Both the position numbers and the translations under genes were made by a program. From positions 641 through 24,640 of the forward strand of contig NZ_JBLWEO010000022.1 of the NCBI RefSeq assembly GCF_048287395.1: 24,000 nt of DNA. Reading direction: 5' to 3'. Each line of letters starts with the position of its first letter. Within the stretch, counting starts at the first letter, position 1. Origin of the DNA: Candidatus Electronema sp. PJ (GTDB taxonomy: Bacteria; Desulfobacterota; Desulfobulbia; Desulfobulbales; Desulfobulbaceae). Below the pieces are notes generated by a model. It saw only the letters and a list, made by a program, of their open reading frames with translations. It had not been told where the DNA came from and made no database searches. Below, piece after piece: positions 15,477-24,000 of this stretch.

Positions 15477-15875
15477 AGTTGGTCTGCATTCAGAAGCACT
15501 TTTGCATCTTCCGAAGTAGCATTCACTCGTTTGAAAGCTGGCAACAGACGTGTGGATACTCTATTCAGACATATAAACAGAGCATTTACTCGTTTGTTTG
15601 GAGCATTCAGATGTATGAAATGAGCTTTTGCATGTTCAAAAGCAGCATTCACTCGTTTGAAAGATGGCAACGGACGTGTGAACAGAGCTTTTGGATGTCC
15701 AGAAACAGTGCTCACTCGTTTGTTAAGAGGATTTGGATATCTAAAAGCTCTATTTAGACATATAAATGGAGTGTTCATACGTTTGAATGCAGCATTTACT
15801 CGTCTGTTTGCTCATAACAAACGAGTGAATACTCCAAGCACTCGTTGAAAAACTGTTTGCACACGAGCAAAAACC
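15477..15875. repeat. Family B 21-nt tandem repeat array with 63-nt higher-order period (about 19 units)
   Basis: The unit is about GCATTCACTCGTTTGAAAGNN. Best-conserved copies start at 15519, 15582, 15645, 15708 and 15771 (63-nt steps), then 15792. Weaker units fill every 21-nt slot. An inverted unit (CAAACGAGTGAAT, 15818-15830) lies near the right end. All six frames are largely free of stop codons, as expected for a repeat. Confidence 0.85.
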
Positions 15876-16012: not shown

Positions 16013-16075
16013 GTAGGGGCAAGCCCCTGTGCTTGCCCTAAGACATTCCGGGCAGGCACAGGGGCCTGCCCCTAC
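16013..16075. repeat. GTAGGGGC...GCCCCTAC palindromic (REP-like) element
   Basis: GTAGGGGCAAGCCCCTGTGCTTGCCC (16013-16038) and GGGCAGGCACAGGGGCCTGCCCCTAC (16050-16075) are inverted repeats with 2 mismatches and an 11-nt loop. The right arm overlaps the stop codon of relic 1. Confidence 0.75.
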
Positions 16076-16206
16076 ACCCCCGCCATCTTCTCCTTCATCT
16101 CATCGCAGTCCTTCTGGCAGCCGATGATGCGCGAATGCCCGGCAGGGAATTTTACCTGCATGATGGCCAAGGCGCGTTGGTGCAGCAGCTCGTCTTTCTC
16201 GTGCAT
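16072..16206 (-). pseudogene. Relic 1 of the TPR-gene 3' end
   Basis: The segment 16066-16180 aligns base-for-base with 16926-17040. There are only 3 mismatches in the first ~75 nt, and it decays after that. It translates as ...LLHQRALAIMQVKFPAGHSRIIGCQKDCDEMKEKMAGV*. An upstream in-frame stop lies at 16255-16257. Confidence 0.65.
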
Positions 16207-16278: not shown

Positions 16279-16548
16279 TCACTTTTTGAACAGCTCGGAA
16301 TGTGAACCTGTCCGCTCCAAAAACAGATCATCGCCAACATATCGGTAGATCAGAATCCAGTCCGGTTCAATATGGCAATCACGGTGTCCTTTCCACTTGC
16401 CTGTCAGCTGATGATCCCGATACTTGGGAGGCGGAGCTTCCCCCTGCAACAGCATTTCGACAACCTCTCTGAGTTTGACAATATCTCTGTTCTGTTTCTG
16501 AGCCTTTTTGTAATCCCGTTTGAACTGCCCGGTGTAATGCAGATTCAA
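16279..16548 (-). CDS. yafQ: Type II toxin, YafQ/RelE-family mRNA interferase
   Basis: The 89-aa ORF closely parallels E. coli YafQ (YKDH.L.G.WKG.RD.H.EPDWILIY...ERTG.H..LF). Confidence 0.85.
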   Translation of the reverse strand: MNLHYTGQFKRDYKKAQKQNRDIVKLREVVEMLLQGEAPPPKYRDHQLTGKWKGHRDCHIEPDWILIYRYVGDDLFLERTGSHSELFKK

Positions 16549-16805
16549 TTGTCCAGCTCCTGGAACAGCTCGTCAACAGAGGCAGCCTGCCGGACATCCT
16601 TTCCCTGTTCGGCAGCGGCCAAAGTTTTTGCCGTTACCTTGTTGGGGATTTTGACCTCAAAGGGAATTTTTTGCTGCTGTGCAATTTGGGACAGATAGAG
16701 CGAGATTGCCTCGGCCATAGACATGTTCAGCCTCCTGAGCACTTTCCTGGCATTCTGCTTGATCTCCGGGTCAACGCGGGTATGAACGGCTGCTGTCTTC
16801 AACAT
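16545..16805 (-). CDS. dinJ: Type II antitoxin, DinJ/RelB family
   Basis: The 86-aa ORF has an RHH-type N-terminus (VHTRVDPEIKQNARKVLRRLNMSMAEAISLYL) and IPFEV like DinJ. It has a 4-nt ATGA overlap with yafQ. Confidence 0.85.
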   Translation of the reverse strand: MLKTAAVHTRVDPEIKQNARKVLRRLNMSMAEAISLYLSQIAQQQKIPFEVKIPNKVTAKTLAAAEQGKDVRQAASVDELFQELDN

Positions 16806-16907: not shown

Positions 16908-16935
16908 GTAAGGGCGTTTCGCGAAACGCCCCTAC
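16908..16935. repeat. GTAGGGGC-type palindrome at the TPR gene stop
   Basis: On the minus strand, GTAGGGGCGTTTCGCGAAACGCCCTTAC. The TAG stop (16932-16934) is embedded in the left arm, the same arrangement as at 16072-16075. Confidence 0.6.
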
Positions 16936-18179
16936 AACCCCGCCATCTTCTCCTTCATCTCATCGTAGTCCTTCTGGCAGCCGCTGATGCGCGAATGCCC
17001 GGCAGGAAGTTTTGCCTGCAAGATGGACAGGGCGCGTTGGAACAGTGGCTCCGCTTCCTCGTATCGTCCTTGATCGCGGTAGAGATTGGCTAAGGTACGT
17101 AAGGTGGTTGTCACATGCGAATGCTCTTTGCCTAGAGCTTGCTCAAAAATCTCCAGTGAGCGCTTGCACAGCGGCTCGGCTTCGGCATATCTTCCTTGGT
17201 AGCGGTAGAGATTGGCCAGAGTGCGCAGAATAGCGGCCACATGCAAATATTCTATGCCAGTAGCTTGCTCCCAAATCTCCAGTGAACGCTTATACAGCGG
17301 CTCGGCGGCATTGTATCTGCCCTGATACTCATAACACCACGCCAGTTCATGCGCTGCGCGAGCAAAATCAAGTCCGTCTTTGTCCTCCTCTTCCCTTATT
17401 CGCAGCAGCCGTTCCAGCCATTCCTGCGCCTGTGCATGGTTGAATAGCGTCCTAGCCATCTGTCCTGCCGCCAGCAAATAGTCCGGGTTGTCCCTCTCCA
17501 GCAGCACGGCTACCCGGTATAGCTCCATCGCCTCGGCATAGTTCACTTCGCTTTCGGCCAGCTTCCCTTCGTGGTGCGCCGCCAAGGCCGCCGCTTTGCC
17601 CGCCTGCTTGCGCACCTCGGCAAAGGTCTCTTTCGCCGCCTTGGTGTCGCCCTGCCGCAGACTGACCTGCGCCTTTTCGATCCGCGCATCCGGCATCTGG
17701 CATTTCATCTGGTCAAGAGCCTCGTCCGCAGCCTTGCGGCGCAGCTGCTCCTCCTTCCAGCTCTCCCGGATGTCGGTCAAATGCTCCTGCACCCCCTGCA
17801 ACTGCGCTTCAAGAAGCTGCCGCTGCTTGTCGTCGGCCATTGAACCGGAGGCTTGCAGATCAAGAATCTGCTGGCGCAGGGTTTTCAGCTCCTCCTCATA
17901 CTGACGCATCCCGTCGGGCTTGTCCGCTGGCTTCCAGTTCTTGACTTTATCGGCGATAAAAAACAAGAAAGCAAGCATCGCAGGAATCCAAACAGCCTTG
18001 TCATCCTTGCCCAAGAAGATCACAGCGGCCATGACGAAGAGGATAAGGAAGAAAATTAGATGCGGCAGCCGTCCTTTGCGCTCGCCGCATTTGAGCAGCA
18101 GGGCAAAAACAAGCAGGCTGTAGCAAATCAACAGCAGCGGCTGCTGATATTGGGTTATCCAGACGCTCGCATTCTTCAT
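16932..18179 (-). CDS. Membrane-anchored coiled-coil / TPR-repeat protein (kinesin-light-chain-like TPR_10/12 repeats)
   Basis: GGAGG lies 9 nt before the ATG. There are three N-terminal TM helices and a coiled-coil segment of about 100 aa. Tandem 42-aa TPR pairs follow (LANLYRYQGRYAEAEPLCKRSLEIFEQALGKEH...). Confidence 0.85.
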   Translation of the reverse strand: MKNASVWITQYQQPLLLICYSLLVFALLLKCGERKGRLPHLIFFLILFVMAAVIFLGKDDKAVWIPAMLAFLFFIADKVKNWKPADKPDGMRQYEEELKTLRQQILDLQASGSMADDKQRQLLEAQLQGVQEHLTDIRESWKEEQLRRKAADEALDQMKCQMPDARIEKAQVSLRQGDTKAAKETFAEVRKQAGKAAALAAHHEGKLAESEVNYAEAMELYRVAVLLERDNPDYLLAAGQMARTLFNHAQAQEWLERLLRIREEEDKDGLDFARAAHELAWCYEYQGRYNAAEPLYKRSLEIWEQATGIEYLHVAAILRTLANLYRYQGRYAEAEPLCKRSLEIFEQALGKEHSHVTTTLRTLANLYRDQGRYEEAEPLFQRALSILQAKLPAGHSRISGCQKDYDEMKEKMAGL

Positions 18180-19166: not shown

Positions 19167-20441
19167 CTATCGCTGCTTCTTTTTCTTTTTGCCGATAAAC
19201 ATCCGCTTGGCTGCCTTTTTGCGGACTACGGGTTTCGTTCTGCCGCCGTTCTTCAGCAACTCCAGCACTTCGCCGCGCTTGTTGGCTGTTTGATTGAGCA
19301 AAATCACGTAGGCCCTGCCGTCATCCAGATAGCCAACATAGTTGTAAATCCCTTTCATGGTGCCAGACTTGCTTGGCACGCCGCCGTGTTTCCGCAGCAG
19401 CCCTGCGTAAGGGCGAAAAGCCCGCAGTACCTCCAGCATAGCCTGGGCAGTTACTTTGTCGCCCCGGTAGAGGCCGGAGCCATCGCGATGGACAATGGCA
19501 GCTGCGGTCTTTGCGCCGAGTTGCCGTTCCAGCTCCTGATGCACGGCCCGATCAGCTTTGCCCCACGTAGCAGGCCAGCCGAATTTCTCTGCCCCAACTG
19601 CCAGATAAACTAAGTTCGAGATGAAATTCGAGGAAAATTTAAGGAAAGAGGCGGTCAGTTCCTGCAAATTTTTGCTGCTGCGATGTTCGTACAGCAAACG
19701 AGCATCAGGCGGTACTTGCTTCAAGCTCAAATGACCTTGGCCAGGAATGCCTGCTTCCTGCTGAAGAGCACGGAAAAGCTGGGCAGTGTAGCGAGCCATT
19801 TCGTGGTTAGCCTTGCAATTGCCCCGGCAGATGTTGATTCGCGTCCAGCTACCGAAAGGGAGATTCTTGGCAAACTCGGTCATGATAGGCAGCACCGGCG
19901 TGCTTTCCTCGCCAGAAAACACCAGGCCGGTTTTCATAACCCGGATGGGCACGCTATTGAAATTAACCGCTGTCGGCCCGACTGGCGCGTCGTAGGGATT
20001 GTCGCTGAACTCGCTGCCGGGCGACTGGTATTCGAGGGCAAACTTGGCTGCGTCAATATAGATGGTGTTGACTTGCCGCAAACCTCTTCGCTTGAGTTCC
20101 GAAAAAATGCCTCGGATCTCCTCAGAGGTGAGCATCGGGTCGCCAAAGCCTTGGACGTAGAGACTCTCGTGCGCGTCCGTGTAGAAACGGGTCTTGAAGC
20201 GGTATTCCGGGCCAAGAACAGATAAGGCAGCCAGCGCAGTCGGCACTTTAAGGATGCTGGCTGGGATGTAAGGGATGTCGAGATTACAGCCCTCGACGAT
20301 GTTTCCTTGCAGATCGCTGATTCCGTAGGCTCCGTTCTGAATCAGCCCAGTGTAAGGCGGTGCACAGACAGAGGCAAGGACAGTTTGGCCAACTGCAAGA
20401 AACAGCAGTACAAGAAAAAGAGAGATTGTATTGGAACGCAT
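19167..20441 (-). CDS. dacB: D-alanyl-D-alanine carboxypeptidase/endopeptidase, PBP4 (peptidase S13) family, with Lys-rich tail
   Basis: Signal peptide is present. The active-site context is PASILKVPTALAAL (SxxK). The general layout is PBP4-like and rather short. The ATG at 20441 is preferred over the TTG at 20453. Confidence 0.75.
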   Translation of the reverse strand: MRSNTISLFLVLLFLAVGQTVLASVCAPPYTGLIQNGAYGISDLQGNIVEGCNLDIPYIPASILKVPTALAALSVLGPEYRFKTRFYTDAHESLYVQGFGDPMLTSEEIRGIFSELKRRGLRQVNTIYIDAAKFALEYQSPGSEFSDNPYDAPVGPTAVNFNSVPIRVMKTGLVFSGEESTPVLPIMTEFAKNLPFGSWTRINICRGNCKANHEMARYTAQLFRALQQEAGIPGQGHLSLKQVPPDARLLYEHRSSKNLQELTASFLKFSSNFISNLVYLAVGAEKFGWPATWGKADRAVHQELERQLGAKTAAAIVHRDGSGLYRGDKVTAQAMLEVLRAFRPYAGLLRKHGGVPSKSGTMKGIYNYVGYLDDGRAYVILLNQTANKRGEVLELLKNGGRTKPVVRKKAAKRMFIGKKKKKQR

Positions 20442-20547
20442 CTTTGCTATCAAGATGAACTTGAGATTGACTGAGTTTTTCTGGTGTTATATCGTACTGG
20501 AGCAATTGATATTCTGACCTACCCTTCTTTTGTCCAGGAACCAATCC

Positions 20548-21096
20548 ATGAGAAACAAAAACAGCTTCCACCGATGGGGAAAAGCATTTTTTCTTCTCCG
20601 TATCTTCTTCTTCGGCATGATTCTGCTTGTCCTGTTGACCATCTGGAAATCCTGGGAGGAGTCGTGGCCAGTCCTCGCGCTTTTCGTTGTCTTGCCTTGG
20701 TTGCTTCCTGTACTCGTTGACCGAGTGGGGCATCTTTTTGGCACCTTCATCATGGAAGGATACAGGCCACGCAACCCGCGTGAGCGGTTTTCAGGAGAGC
20801 TAATCAAAGCGCGGCGCATGAAGGCAGAACGGAACTACACAGATGCCCTTGCAGGTGCAAATTTTGTCCTGAGCAAGATGCCTGATCACCCGGATGCCCT
20901 GTTTCTTAAAGCGCAGATCTTGTGCGAAGGCTTTGAGAGATATGTTGATGCCAAAAGATGCTTGGAGCAAGTTGCGGCGGTCGATAATCCGCCTCCTGAT
21001 GAAACAACAAGCAATTGGGCAGCTCATTTGCTTGAAGAAGTAACGAGGCAGATCGAGAAAAATGGCAAAGGAAGTCATCAAAAGAATTTGAGATAA
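20548..21096 (+). CDS. Hypothetical two-TM membrane protein with TPR-like C-terminal domain
   Basis: The ATG at 20548 has AGGAA 9 nt upstream. TM helices are AFFLLRIFFFGMILLVLLTIW and WPVLALFVVLPWLLPVLV. The C-terminus NYTDALAGANFVLSKMPDHPDALFLKAQIL is TPR-like. Confidence 0.6.
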   Translation: MRNKNSFHRWGKAFFLLRIFFFGMILLVLLTIWKSWEESWPVLALFVVLPWLLPVLVDRVGHLFGTFIMEGYRPRNPRERFSGELIKARRMKAERNYTDALAGANFVLSKMPDHPDALFLKAQILCEGFERYVDAKRCLEQVAAVDNPPPDETTSNWAAHLLEEVTRQIEKNGKGSHQKNLR

Positions 21097-21101
21097 TCTT
21101 C

Positions 21102-21152
21102 TCAAAGCACCTTTGCTTTCACAATCCGCACCAGAGCTGCCAATTTCTCCAT
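21102..21152 (-). pseudogene. Relic of a radical-SAM gene C-terminus
   Basis: The minus strand reads MEKLAALVRIVKAKVL*. Compare the intact gene end ...DEQAELVRIVKMGVREA* at 21839. It contains the 17-nt repeat copy. Confidence 0.4.
21118..21134. repeat. 17-nt direct repeat, left copy (TTCACAATCCGCACCAG)
   Basis: An exact 17/17 match to 21861-21877, read directly from the sequence. Confidence 0.8.
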
Positions 21153-21860
21153 GTTTACCCTTGAAGCCTACGGCAGCAAAGAACCTATGGCACCCATGAT
21201 AGTGCCCGCCGCTATCCACGCAAAACCAACTAGCAGCTGTTTTAACTCTTTTTTATTATCATCCTTGATTCTGTTAATTTCACTTTTGATAATGGATTTC
21301 AAACCTCCTATCGATTCCGCAAGATTTTCTATCCTCCGCTCATGAAGTATGATATACATGTCAAGTGTATTTGTATTTACAAAAAGATTACTAATCCTTT
21401 CATTCGAAGATTTTTTTGGATCATCTTTTATTACACCAGGCCCTCCAGACAAAGAGCCAATAAAGCCAATAGCCGCATCGATATTAGCTTCAACAGCACC
21501 ATTGATATTGCGGGCGGGATATTCTCCGATCCATTTCTTTATAAGTTGATATACTTCTAATAAACCTACCGTTGTCTGCGCCATTCCTCCCAGTTCAAGT
21601 ACACAGCCTAACGCTGTGAATGCCTTGTTATTCCATCCAAGTATCCAACAGATCGCTAAGAAAGCAACAACAACGAAGGCACCTCCAAAAACATCTTTTC
21701 CACTACGAAGCCAAAGCAACACCTCTTTGCTCCAGCTTCGCAGCCGCTTATAATCGAAGGAGGCAATCTTTGTGCAAAGATACTTTGCGATAAAAAGGAA
21801 GGATAGAGCAGCAATGAAATAAATGCACATGGATATATCTAAGCCTCCCTCACCCCCATC
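21135..21860. mobile_element. Putative inserted AT-rich islet (726 bp, one gene, no recombinase)
   Basis: It is bounded by the exact 17-nt direct repeat. Hand counts of six 60-nt lines inside (21241-21600) give 23-47% G+C, against 65% for 21901-21960 in the adjacent gene. Confidence 0.35.
21168..21830 (-). CDS. Hypothetical membrane protein (3 N-terminal TM helices, coiled-coil, C-terminal TM helix), AT-rich
   Basis: The 220-aa ORF starts 8 nt after the radical-SAM stop. TM segments are CIYFIAALSFLFIA, FGGAFVVVAFLAICWILGW and LVGFAWIAAGTIMGAIGSLL. A charged helical stretch reads IENLAESIGGLKSIIKSEINRIKDDNKKELKQL. I recognise no family. Confidence 0.65.
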   Translation of the reverse strand: MCIYFIAALSFLFIAKYLCTKIASFDYKRLRSWSKEVLLWLRSGKDVFGGAFVVVAFLAICWILGWNNKAFTALGCVLELGGMAQTTVGLLEVYQLIKKWIGEYPARNINGAVEANIDAAIGFIGSLSGGPGVIKDDPKKSSNERISNLFVNTNTLDMYIILHERRIENLAESIGGLKSIIKSEINRIKDDNKKELKQLLVGFAWIAAGTIMGAIGSLLP

Positions 21861-24000
21861 TTCACAATCCGCACCAGCTCCGCCTGCTCGTCCTGCAAAC
21901 CAAACACCGCTGCCAGCGTATCCCTTGGCCCGACACCCGCCTCGGCGCAGGGATGATAGAGGTCAAGCAGCAGCCTGCCGCCTTCGCCCAGCTCCAGCTT
22001 CCTGACGAACTCCTTCAGATCAAACTCACGGCTTTTACCCTTGCGGCGGCGTTCCAGCAGGAAGCGTTCCGTGATCTGAAAGGCGGCGATGCTGTCTCTT
22101 GCCTGCTCTGCATCCACACCCTCCGGCAGCAGGCAGTCATAGCTGATGATCTCATTGACCGGGGCTTTTTTCTTGGCCAAAGCAAGGGCAGTGATCGCCA
22201 TGAAGCTCGGCAGCTGGCGGTTCAGCTCGGCCATGACCTCCGCCGGGCGGCGGACAGGTTCAGCCAGATCAACCTCAAAGAACTCCATCTCGCTTTCCAC
22301 GCCCACCGGCAAGGCCGGGCTGAAGGTGACGCGCGGCGTTGGATTGAAGCCCTGCGAGAAGAGCACCGGCAGCCCGGCCCGCTGCAAGGCGCGGAAGACG
22401 AGGTTGAGCAGCTCCAGATGCCCAATGAAGCGGCCGTCGCCAAGGCGTGAGTAATCGGCGCGGTAGCGGAAAATGGTCGGCTGACTGTTCTTGTCCCGCT
22501 CTTGCTTAGGAACCGCAGGCCCGGTGCTTGCTGCTGCCTCCTTTGGCGGATTGACCAGCGGCCTGATGCTCTTGAAATCACAGAGGCCGCAGTTCTGGCA
22601 GCCCTGATTGCGGCAGTCAGGGGTATAAGCGCGCTCCATCGCTCGCTCGTATTCGCGCTCCAAGAAACTGCGGTCAACACCACTGCTGAGGTGATCCCAA
22701 GGCAGGACTTCGCTGCGGTCGCGCTGACGCAGGTAGAATTCGAGATCAATGCCGACGCGCTCCGCCGCCTGCTGCCAGCGGGCGAGCGAGAAATGCTCGT
22801 TCCAGCCGTCGAGCCGCGCTCCGTCCCGCCACGCCTCTTCCAATAAACGAGAAAGCCTGCGGTCGCCGCGCGAGAACACGCCTTCGAGCAGGCATTGCTC
22901 CGGGTCGTGCCACTTGAGCTTGTAGCCCTTGGGCGGCAGCTTCTTCATCAGCCGCTGGATGCGCTCTTTGGACTCATCGAGCGAAATCTGGCTGCACCAC
23001 TGGAACGGCGTGTGCGGCTTCGGCACAAAGGTGGAAACCGAGACGTTGATGTCCGCTTTCTTGCCGCTGGCCTCGCGCCGCGCCCGCGCCGCCAAGTCAA
23101 CTATCGCGTCCACATCCTCCAGCGTCTCGGTGGGCAGGCCAATCATGAAATAAAACTTGAGCACGCTCCAGCCCGCATTGAAGGCATCGCGGCAGCCTGC
23201 GAGCAAGTCGGCCTCGGTGATGCCCTTGTTGATCACCTCGCGCAGCCGGTCAGTGCCTGCTTCCGGCGCGACCGTGAAGCCGGTCTTGCGCACTCGCCTA
23301 ATCTGGGCAATCACCTCTGGGGTGAGGGTGCCAACCCGCATCGAGGGCAGAGAGATCGAGACGCGCTCCTCGGCGAAGCGGTCCATCAGCTTGGTCAGCA
23401 GCTCCGGCAGGCAGGAGTAGTCGCCGGTGGAGAGCGAGAGCAGGGCCAGCTCGCCAAAGCCGGAGTTCTGAATGCCCTGCTCGGCCAGCTGCATCACCTG
23501 CTCAACCGTGCGTTCGCGCACCGGACGGTAGATCATCCCGGCCTGGCAGAAGCGGCAGCCGCGTGTGCAGCCCCGCGCAATCTCCACGCCGAGGCGGTCA
23601 TGCACCGGCTTGACCATCGGCACGAGCGGGCGTTCGAGCAGCTCGGTCGGCGGCAGTTGCGGGACAATACGGCGGCGAATGTGTGTATAGCCCGGCTTGA
23701 GCGGGATGACAGCCTTGAGCTGCTGGCCTTCATACTGCGGCTCAAAGAAGGACGGCACGTACACGCCCGCAATCTCCGCCAGCCGGTGCAGCTTTTCTTG
23801 GCGCGAGAGGCCGTCACGCTTGGCCGCACGCAAGGCAGCCGCAATCTCCAGAATCACCTCCTCGCCGTCACCAAGGACAACAGCATCAAAGAAATCCGCC
23901 AGCGGCTCCGGGTTCATCGAGCAGGAGCCGCCGCCGATGACCAAGGGCGCGTCCTCGCCGCGCTCCGCCGCCCGCAGCGGAATCTGCGCCAGATCAAGGA
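21839..24000 (-). CDS. Radical SAM protein, B12-binding-like N-domain plus fused DUF2344-type C-domain (TIGR03960/TIGR03936-like), 5' partial
   Basis: CTRGCRFCQAG is the CxxxCxxC radical-SAM motif. The C-terminal ~230 aa (IFRYRADYSRLGDGRFIGHLELLNLVFRALQRAGLPV..FSQGFNP) resemble DUF2344. The reading frame stays open to nt 24000, so the track start at 23944 (a TTG) is an artefact. Confidence 0.88.
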   Translation of the reverse strand, partial: LDLAQIPLRAAERGEDAPLVIGGGSCSMNPEPLADFFDAVVLGDGEEVILEIAAALRAAKRDGLSRQEKLHRLAEIAGVYVPSFFEPQYEGQQLKAVIPLKPGYTHIRRRIVPQLPPTELLERPLVPMVKPVHDRLGVEIARGCTRGCRFCQAGMIYRPVRERTVEQVMQLAEQGIQNSGFGELALLSLSTGDYSCLPELLTKLMDRFAEERVSISLPSMRVGTLTPEVIAQIRRVRKTGFTVAPEAGTDRLREVINKGITEADLLAGCRDAFNAGWSVLKFYFMIGLPTETLEDVDAIVDLAARARREASGKKADINVSVSTFVPKPHTPFQWCSQISLDESKERIQRLMKKLPPKGYKLKWHDPEQCLLEGVFSRGDRRLSRLLEEAWRDGARLDGWNEHFSLARWQQAAERVGIDLEFYLRQRDRSEVLPWDHLSSGVDRSFLEREYERAMERAYTPDCRNQGCQNCGLCDFKSIRPLVNPPKEAAASTGPAVPKQERDKNSQPTIFRYRADYSRLGDGRFIGHLELLNLVFRALQRAGLPVLFSQGFNPTPRVTFSPALPVGVESEMEFFEVDLAEPVRRPAEVMAELNRQLPSFMAITALALAKKKAPVNEIISYDCLLPEGVDAEQARDSIAAFQITERFLLERRRKGKSREFDLKEFVRKLELGEGGRLLLDLYHPCAEAGVGPRDTLAAVFGLQDEQAELVRIVKMGVREA
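21861..21877. repeat. 17-nt direct repeat, right copy (inside the radical-SAM 3' end)
   Basis: An exact match to 21118-21134. It encodes LVRIV of the intact protein. Confidence 0.8.

Follow-up and report, generated by a model that had tools for sequence, protein, structure and literature searches.

The stretch of DNA analyzed here, called the window throughout, comprises 24,000 nucleotides of Candidatus Electronema sp. PJ, a cable bacterium of the Desulfobulbaceae (contig NZ_JBLWEO010000022.1, positions 641 to 24,640). Close to its right end, an AT-rich gene of 220 codons, which we call the islet gene, lies directly behind a gene encoding a B12-binding radical-SAM/DUF2344 fusion protein (rSAM in the following), and the far side of the islet gene is bordered by a short relic that resembles the end of rSAM. 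A preliminary description of the window, made from the sequence alone, had read this arrangement as the trace of a site-specific integration. We describe below the locus, its counterparts in related genomes, the way in which the islet may have arrived, and the protein that it encodes. The features on which the argument rests are these, in the order of their coordinates:

19167-20453, minus strand: D-Ala-D-Ala carboxypeptidase gene (Peptidase_S13 according to Pfam; S13 in the following), the conserved far flank of the slot that contains the islet gene
20530-21096, plus strand: TPR188, a gene for a 188-residue membrane-anchored TPR protein (Pfam TPR_19, E=2e-4), convergent with the islet gene
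21087-21108: AT-rich hairpin of 7 bp, TTTGAGA-AGATTA-TCTCAAA, between the convergent relic/islet transcript and TPR188
21102-21152, minus strand: relic, a mini open reading frame (ORF) of 16 codons, MEKLAALVRIVKAKVL followed by a stop codon, which houses the left copy of a 17-nt repeat (21118-21134)
21168-21830, minus strand: islet gene, an ORF of 220 codons whose ATG lies 8 nt past the rSAM stop codon
21240-21589, minus strand: hypervariable central segment of the islet gene (GC 0.36)
21839-23944, minus strand: 3' part of rSAM, which runs past the end of the window; the conserved anchor of the slot
21839-21860, minus strand: tail of rSAM after the 17-nt repeat, M-G-V-R-E-A-stop, containing GGGAGG
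21861-21877: right copy of the 17-nt repeat, encoding L-V-R-I-V-K of the intact rSAM protein (...ELVRIVK)

The window contains exactly two copies of the 17-mer TTCACAATCCGCACCAG, one at 21118-21134 and the other at 21861-21877, separated by 726 bp. When the sequence was shuffled 100 times with its dinucleotide composition preserved, no shuffle matched this, even with up to two mismatches. The preliminary description had reported the repeat in the same terms, together with the position of the right copy in the ...ELVRIVK codons of the intact rSAM gene, that of the left copy in the 16-codon relic, and the start of the islet gene 8 nt past the rSAM stop, and all of this is borne out by our analysis. 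The similarity around the repeat is short: ungapped extension of the pair gives 24 nt at 88% identity. The relic, which begins 15 nt past the islet-gene stop codon, was compared in register with 16 rSAM alleles, and the match is convincing only over a span that opens about 10 nt ahead of the 17-mer and closes about 12 nt past it. The counts are 9-12 matches out of 20 upstream of the 17-mer and 3-7 out of 12 downstream, and farther out the similarity is at chance level. Since the similarity is thus confined to about 25-35 nt, the view that the relic is an alternative C-terminus of the same gene family stands as regards a displaced rSAM 3' end, which is a short one, and fails as regards any long fragment. 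Across the same 16 alleles, a 14-nt core, GTGCGGATTGTGAA, shows 0-2 mismatches while the codons on either side of it vary, which makes it the best-conserved stretch of the rSAM 3' end. The rSAM protein itself carries the Pfam domains Radical_SAM_N2, Radical_SAM and DUF2344 and ends in MGVREA, and its orthologues in the first ten loci compared below (L001-L010) are 71-95% identical. Its intact tail, K-M-G-V-R-E-A-stop, is ordinary: tails of the type K[MAV]x[VAL]RE[VA]-stop are present in genomes with and without the islet gene. The odd one is the tail of the relic, K-A-K-V-L-stop.

The composition of the islet gene differs sharply from that of its surroundings. Its GC content (0.406) and its GC content at third codon positions (GC3, 0.38) are the lowest among the 19 window ORFs compared; the corresponding values are 0.63 and 0.80 for rSAM and 0.54 and 0.62 for S13, and the mean GC of the window is 0.53. 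The GC content drops abruptly at the rSAM stop codon, from 0.63 to about 0.45, and GC3 values of 0.54-0.80 in the neighboring genes, against 0.38 in the islet gene, indicate that the shift is present at the level of codons. The insert is therefore AT-rich and compositionally foreign, as had been proposed. We found neither a promoter nor a terminator between rSAM and the islet gene, and no promoter-like site in the 8-nt gap. The GGGAGG of the rSAM tail, 13 nt upstream of the islet gene, could be its ribosome-binding site. Since the gap has no such site and this motif precedes the gene, the islet gene is probably co-transcribed with rSAM by read-through. Scans for RNA elements, promoters and terminators around the islet gave nothing significant, and no inverted repeats pairing the two islet junctions were found. 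At the other end of the islet, the hairpin at 21087-21108 overlaps the TPR188 stop codon directly past the relic. The RNA fold of the segment that contains it (21085-21175) has z=-1.7, and a stricter terminator scan gave no call. The hairpin could serve both convergent transcripts as a weak bidirectional terminator.

We compared the window with rSAM 3'-end loci from GTDB species genomes and from metagenomes (the latter contributing at least six loci), plus contigs that encode close homologues. The protein family of the islet gene, which we describe further below, has a member 6-9 nt past the rSAM stop codon in five loci: the window, L001, L002, L003 and L086. A hidden Markov model (HMM) of the family finds a member in only these 5 of about 17 Electronema-type loci, and none near rSAM in L004-L010, L083-L085, L087 and L088. 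Given in addition its low GC and GC3, the gene does not behave as one that all relatives carry in the same place with native composition, an outcome that the preliminary description had named as fatal to its reading. It had also called the gene a foreign singleton. The terms foreign and accessory are justified, whereas a recent singleton is not what we see, since homologues with 43-57% identity occupy the same position in other lineages.

The loci that lack the family carry other genes in its place. In L004, L005 and L008, the slot is filled by a Trypco1 protein and an nSTAND1/WD40 protein of 1,400-1,500 residues, and in L004 a MazE/PIN pair follows the nSTAND gene. L006 has a 524-residue NHL-repeat protein, and L007 an AT-rich gene for a 368-residue protein without Pfam domain, then a ParE/Phd pair. 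Small proteins of secreted type, all encoded at a GC of about 0.40, are found in L009, L085 and L087 (138-159 residues) and in L010 and L088 (194 residues). Arrangements without cargo also exist: in L083 and L084 a gene for a transporter of the major facilitator superfamily (MFS) overlaps the rSAM stop codon, and in the Desulfobulbus locus L011, S13 follows after 126 nt. The linkage of rSAM with S13 is also present in L001, L007, L009, L085 and L087. In a neighbor-joining tree of the rSAM 3' region, the loci with the family gene are scattered, L001 pairing with L007 and L086 with L087. Such different contents among close relatives show that the interval past the rSAM stop codon is a hypervariable accessory slot, and the presence in it of Trypco1 and nSTAND/WD40 genes shows that the slot recruits conflict genes. 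The far side of the slot varies as well. Compared with L001, the window loses homology at the islet stop codon (21168) and regains it at S13 (20459); the block 21167-20460, with the relic and the convergent TPR188, is an indel that is wholly absent from L001. By tblastn, TPR188 was found only in the window and in L002 among the loci examined, always together with the relic.

In the window and in three other loci, L002, L005 and L006, the rSAM 3' end is present a second time on the far side of the cargo, in each case with an intact conserved anchor gene and a copy truncated at its 5' side. The closest relative of the window, L002, has the same relic with one mismatch. In L006, the relic (L006:8552-8610) lies after the NHL gene and is made of two pieces, EQAADSITAL, which comes from about 100 codons upstream in the gene, being fused to LVRIVK; a strong terminator-like hairpin and then nadA come after this relic. 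The core of this relic matches the window core at 16 of 17 positions and its own rSAM gene at only 14 of 17, and this greater closeness to the rSAM of the window again points to imported DNA. The most telling case is L005 (Ca. Electronema sp. JC), where the second copy is 666 nt long and contains the whole DUF2344 part without a start codon. The order of the genes (L005:6950-12420) is full-length rSAM, Trypco1, a 1,427-residue nSTAND1/WD40 protein, about 70 nt of the 5' end of an MFS gene, the 666-nt rSAM copy and then the 368-residue gene that directly follows rSAM in L007. The 70-nt MFS fragment is fused to the middle of rSAM at ...KQERDK, in what looks like a circle-closing joint. The two rSAM copies are 88-97% identical per 60-nt window, and the second is equally close to L007, L001 and the first copy. 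This divergence, along with the closeness to L007 and L001, indicates two alleles and not a self-duplication. The structure of L005 is exactly that expected of a Campbell-type crossover with a circle on which the cargo was joined to fragments of an rSAM 3' end and of an MFS gene. The copies in the window are too short to tell a donor from a recipient allele. Taken across loci, the displaced copies differ in length (17-24 nt in the window, two pieces in L006, 666 nt in L005), in 5' boundary and in sequence, which argues against a single recombinase core.

On balance, we lean towards the view that DNA from other strains of Electronema reshapes the slot, by way of recombination that is anchored in the conserved 3' end of rSAM. 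With a similarly slight preference, we see here a recombination hot spot that opens immediately past the rSAM stop codon and accepts several alternative cargoes, the islet being one of them. The 17-base repeat does not prove an integrase-driven element, and is most likely the scar of a recombination that left over a copy of the rSAM end. The cargo would enter with DNA of other Electronema strains by a crossover anchored in the rSAM 3' end, either through integration of a circular fragment by a single, Campbell-type crossover or through homology-facilitated illegitimate recombination. Both routes would rebuild an intact rSAM gene and push the previous 3' end downstream, where it would erode. 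The relic at 21102-21152 would be such a displaced end, once contiguous with the convergent TPR188, and the joint in the window would fall near 21135-21150. The exactness of the 17-mer does not require a recombinase site, because no part of the rSAM 3' end is better conserved than this core, and the crossover probably took place there. With a core that is the most conserved part across alleles, a copy from a diverged allele would naturally combine a perfect core with diverged flanks.

Several observations weigh against this view. Good identity in the window extends over only 17-24 nt, on which a RecA-type crossover would be inefficient. L001 has the islet gene without the relic or a second core, which implies that its copy arrived, or was tidied up, differently, and in L086 no second core was seen in the 140 nt of downstream sequence present on the contig. 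The predicted empty site, with rSAM ending in ...VRIVKAKVL-stop and abutting TPR188, was not seen among the loci, no targeted search for it having been made. The AT-richness of the islet gene is partly a family trait, as members have a GC of 0.32-0.48 in several hosts, and the gene could be decaying here, as two family motifs are gone in the window allele and L002 has an in-frame stop codon (see below). Finally, an att core would likewise present itself as a perfect 17-mer between strongly diverged flanks. This brings us to the model of the preliminary description, in which a small cassette integrated site-specifically at the rSAM 3' end, with the 17-mer as att core, the tail MGVREA supplied by the element, and an integrase that acted in trans or was lost. 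We consider this model unlikely, and we keep it as a live rival since an att core would look just the same (perfect 17-mer, flanks at about 50% identity). It accounts well for the direct repeats found at both junctions, for an rSAM gene kept intact with a displaced tail at the far side, for the similarity of the L006 relic to rSAM, which also stops directly past the same core, and for the recurrent targeting of the rSAM 3' end in four loci. It accounts poorly for displaced copies that are unequal in length and 5' boundary, one of them with an MFS fragment, and that were not kept identical in L002, L005 and L006, as well as for the gene without a second core in L001 and, within the 140 nt present, in L086. 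Among loci that have the gene, the shared homology runs out at its stop codon, 33 nt short of the core, and there are no flanking inverted repeats. The absence of an integrase, already noted in the preliminary description, holds for the scanned window ORFs and for the called genes of L001, the other loci not having been screened. No recombinase is found in or next to the islet, a single 220-codon gene without Pfam match, although an enzyme acting in trans from elsewhere in the genome is possible. Hence, the attL/attR integration of a 743-bp element is not supported, given the varying boundaries, and neither is the replacement 3' end, as the allegedly supplied tail is the ordinary tail of genomes that lack the gene.

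Two other explanations were weighed against recombination anchored in rSAM. The relic might be unrelated to the arrival of the islet gene, having come with a TPR188 block that was inserted between a resident islet gene and S13. The block would formerly have been the neighbor of an rSAM gene, and the 17-mers would bracket the islet merely by adjacency. Both parts of this account seem to us decidedly improbable. The relic and TPR188 are both present in the window and in L002 and both absent from L001, the break between the window and L001 falls exactly at the islet stop codon with the whole of 21167-20460 as an indel, and the islet gene is found in the slots of the distant L003 and L086, where no relic is seen. 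Yet L003 and L086 end too soon past the gene to exclude a relic or TPR188, and no locus was seen in which rSAM directly abuts TPR188. This account still needs a recombination event that copies the rSAM 3' end, and is thus a variant of the explanation that we prefer and not a separate mechanism. In the other explanation, which we think very unlikely, the islet gene would be an ordinary, fast-evolving membrane gene of vertical descent, with a low GC caused by amino-acid composition and weak expression, and the 17-mer and relic would be produced by a trivial local duplication. Its constant position 6-9 nt past the rSAM stop codon in five loci, the conservation of the first 240 nt and last 70 nt of the gene (88-96%) and the AT-richness of the family in several hosts are what one would expect in this case. 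On the other hand, the patchy presence of the family disagrees with the rSAM tree, where the partner of L001 is L007, a locus with different cargo; sister genomes have unrelated cargo in the slot; the GC3 of the gene stands apart from that of its neighbors (0.38 against 0.54-0.80); and the type of its central domain does not track the flanks. With a perfect 17-mer, a simple tandem duplication of recent date would also have left the relic with less diverged flanks. A plain duplication without compositional step had been named in the preliminary description as a possible undoing of its reading, and what we observe is a GC step that holds and flanks at about 50% identity.

Other candidates were considered and rejected. 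A simple tandem duplication with uniform decay does not fit a perfect 17-mer beside flanks of about 50% identity. An insertion sequence (IS), a miniature inverted-repeat transposable element or another transposon was discarded, as there is no inverted repeat at the junctions, no transposase, and a repeat of 17 nt in place of a target-site duplication of 2-14 bp. An integron cassette was discarded too, since no significant structure or inverted repeat lies past the gene (fold z=-1.7) and there is no intI in the window.

The islet protein is 100% identical to one annotated as hypothetical in Ca. Electronema sp. PJ. Its hydropathy profile supports hydrophobic helices at residues 1-20, 47-67 and 199-220, a weak one at 70-92, and a charged helical middle. 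The layout proposed previously, three N-terminal transmembrane (TM) helices, a charged coiled-coil segment and a C-terminal TM helix, is therefore supported except for the third N-terminal helix (70-92), which is weak. The protein has no match in Pfam or in PADLOC-DB v2, and its best E-value in PHROGs is 0.1; an AlphaFold2 model made with a six-sequence alignment is too poor to use, its predicted local distance difference test (pLDDT) score being 42.8. The comparison of alleles is more informative. Outside the middle of the islet gene, the window and L002 are 93-99% identical at the nucleotide level in the flanks. Within the gene, identity is 88-93% over the first 240 nt and 93-95% over the last 70 nt and the relic, and in sliding comparison it falls to 45-58% over the central 340 nt or so (about 21580-21240). 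The same holds for the amino-acid sequences of the five Electronema alleles, which are 70-83% identical in the N-terminal third, 27-51% in the middle and 80-95% in the C-terminal helix. The middle of the window protein is nearest to that of L086 (42%), although the rSAM gene of L086 is far more distant, and L001 and L002 share another type of middle (83%). The central domain has therefore been exchanged, or has diversified, independently of the flanks, in a pattern which suggests that alleles trade a specificity-like domain while the ends of the gene stay conserved.

That an AT-rich ORF remains intact across such divergence implies selection and not neutral decay. Some alleles may nevertheless be impaired. 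Compared with L086 and with the family, the window protein has two in-frame deletions, of 9 and 8 residues, which remove two nearly invariant family motifs: R..F..P.L after the second TM helix and LE.LH..D before the last one. Hence, the window allele may be a divergent member that is altered in function or partly disabled. In the L002 homologue, an in-frame TAG (L002:848-850, TGG in the window) lies just before the C-terminal TM helix, and reflects either pseudogenization or a sequencing error in a metagenome contig.

The family to which the islet protein belongs, whose members have about 215 residues, was defined here from our own alignments. The family HMM matches the islet ORF with E=1e-39. 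A profile built on Electronema sequences alone matches typical family members with E about 1e-20, and at E<=1e-3 it retrieves at least 285 clusters (representatives at 50% identity), mostly of 205-230 residues and matched end to end. A word-indexed search with typical members gave at least 421 proteins, all annotated as hypothetical and none with a Pfam domain. Typical members were also searched against NCBIfam and PADLOC without consistent match, PADLOC giving scattered single-member noise for 12 members, and we found no fold or sequence match of the family to solved or viral structures. The conserved features begin with a basic N-terminus with W..W, followed by two TM helices (G..LQL.G...AI.GL). 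Then come R..F..P.L.....W...FP.W and a variable loop; the end is formed by P.E.R......N, which opens a long helix, by LE.LH..D and by the final TM helix. The AlphaFold2 model of a typical member is all-helical (pLDDT 70), with a disordered loop at residues 89-125. A typical member is thus modelled as three TM helices plus a long helix, with an extra N-terminal hydrophobic helix in the Electronema clade. The positive-inside rule applied to the sequence P0015, together with the helix layout of the AlphaFold2 model, would place the basic N-terminus and the long helix in the cytoplasm.

Outside Electronema, family genes occur in diverse surroundings. In Oleiphilus (L101), the gene adjoins SIR2-like and DUF87 genes, a type I restriction enzyme and Fic; in L100 a TIR protein and IS elements are nearby; in L102 it lies beside HepT/MNT, with an integrase and a resolvase in the vicinity; and in Skermanella (L103) it is found in an IS-rich plasmid region. 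In four contigs of Methylophilaceae type (L089:7135-8657, L093, L094 and L096), the family gene starts 2 nt past the stop codon of htpX (Peptidase_M48), with a GC of 0.39 against 0.51 for htpX, and its downstream neighbors differ from contig to contig. We looked for a duplicated htpX 3' end at these copies and found none, which indicates that the duplication of the 3' end belongs to the Electronema slot and not to the gene family. In sitting so closely behind a housekeeping gene, these copies resemble the one in Electronema.

What the islet protein does can be approached from these contexts. The preliminary description had suggested a role in conflict or defence, speculatively, and the protein may plausibly have one. 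Our own proposal is tentative, and we hold it to be more doubtful than probable: the protein could be a stand-alone inner-membrane factor of conflict, defence or exclusion, with a shuffled middle for specificity and TM helices acting on the membrane. The variable domain would sense something, and the TM helices would exert the effect. This proposal draws on the company that the gene keeps in the slot and elsewhere, on its low GC and on its mosaicism. Against it stand the lack of any family, structure or defence-database match for the protein, and the failure to find a conserved partner gene, the downstream genes in L098 and L100-L102 being mutually unrelated. The family is also absent from all 50,697 phage records and present in 1 of 72,556 plasmids, counts which led us to discard a phage or plasmid origin of the family. 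The two parts of the argument could be joined, such that the rSAM 3' end would be an integrase-free landing pad through which circles re-enter any strain by Campbell crossover, and the family a previously unrecognized single-gene membrane factor of defence or exclusion whose central domain, shuffled by recombination, would serve as its specificity module. We judge this quite improbable, and give no better chance to the corollary that the cargo travels with a copy of the 3' end and would excise as a circle by recombination between the copies.

Elsewhere in the window, a few kb from the islet, we recorded other features. A pair of genes for a YafQ-type toxin (89 residues, Pfam E=1e-35) and a RelB antitoxin (86 residues) lies at 16279-16805 on the minus strand and constitutes another small accessory module. 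It adjoins TPR415 (16932-18179), which encodes a 415-residue protein with TM and TPR segments. On its other side, at 16075-16203 (minus strand), is a fragment 72% identical over 43 residues to the C-terminus of the TPR415 protein; this is the second displaced 3'-end relic of the window, located beyond the inserted toxin-antitoxin pair. Between ahcY and a toxin-antitoxin pair, the AT-rich intergenic sequence (GC 0.42) contains a degenerate repeat array at 15499-15722 (more widely 15480-15830), with a period of about 63 nt, 3.6 copies, a 65% match and a recurring ...GCATTCACTCGTTTGAAAG... motif.

The locus is known in kind, as a variable hot spot flanked by core genes with a displaced 3' end and with cargo from an uncharacterized and widespread family. 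Nothing in it is surprising in this respect, and its value is descriptive, plus a testable lead. A concrete hot spot of accessory genes is recorded in cable bacteria, which are uncultured and about whose genome plasticity little has been described. Import of DNA from sister strains, without a dedicated mobile element, appears to be what changes the slot, and L005 provides an unusually clear natural example of a Campbell-like, homology-anchored insertion. A widespread membrane family that lacked a curated model is brought to light, and is a reasonable candidate for functional screening.

Several known systems resemble parts of what we describe. Variable or defence hot spots flanked by core genes, also called genomic islets, are known from the pan-genomes of E. 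coli and Pseudomonas. The slot shares with them a fixed position between housekeeping genes (here rSAM and S13/folE2), unrelated accessory or conflict genes, and cargo of low GC. It differs in that it opens a few nt past a stop codon, in that its cargo appears to be promoter-less, in the copies of the upstream gene's 3' end that are left behind, and in its host, an uncultured freshwater cable bacterium. Integrative elements that insert at the 3' ends of tRNA, tmRNA or protein-coding genes bring a replacement 3' end and thereby produce the direct repeats attL and attR. Here too, direct repeats flank foreign DNA, the target gene is intact and a displaced end lies at the far junction, whereas no integrase or excisionase is seen, the insert is a single gene of 0.7 kb, the length and boundary of the repeat vary by locus, and some loci lack a second repeat. 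The Trypco1 and trypsin/nSTAND/WD40 systems, NTP-dependent conflict systems of multicellular bacteria reportedly described by Kaur and colleagues in eLife in 2020, occupy the identical slot past rSAM in L004, L005 and L008; they are multi-domain cytoplasmic NTPases, unlike the 220-residue membrane protein in sequence and architecture.

Among small membrane effectors (2TM/SLATT-like, holin-like or superinfection-exclusion proteins), the likeness is in the small size, the TM segments with a helical domain, the single gene, the AT-richness with a variable region, and the neighborhoods rich in defence genes or mobile elements. The differences are the lack of a sequence or fold match to any of them and of a sensor or nucleotide-signaling gene alongside. 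For effector-immunity loci of the type VI secretion system and for Rhs and contact-dependent inhibition loci, sequential displacement has been proposed (Kirchberger et al. 2017, PMC5361080): new modules recombine in through an upstream stretch that is conserved, and the 3' ends orphaned in this way remain downstream. On homology-facilitated illegitimate recombination, that paper refers to de Vries & Wackernagel 2002 and to Prudhomme et al. 2002. Electronema differs in that its anchor is a housekeeping radical-SAM enzyme where those loci have a polymorphic toxin, in that its cargo is something other than a toxin tip with an immunity gene, and in that the relic in the window is very short. In both cases, however, there is a conserved anchor, an insertion at its 3' end without integrase, an old 3' end that is displaced and truncated and, as in L005, the presence of two alleles.

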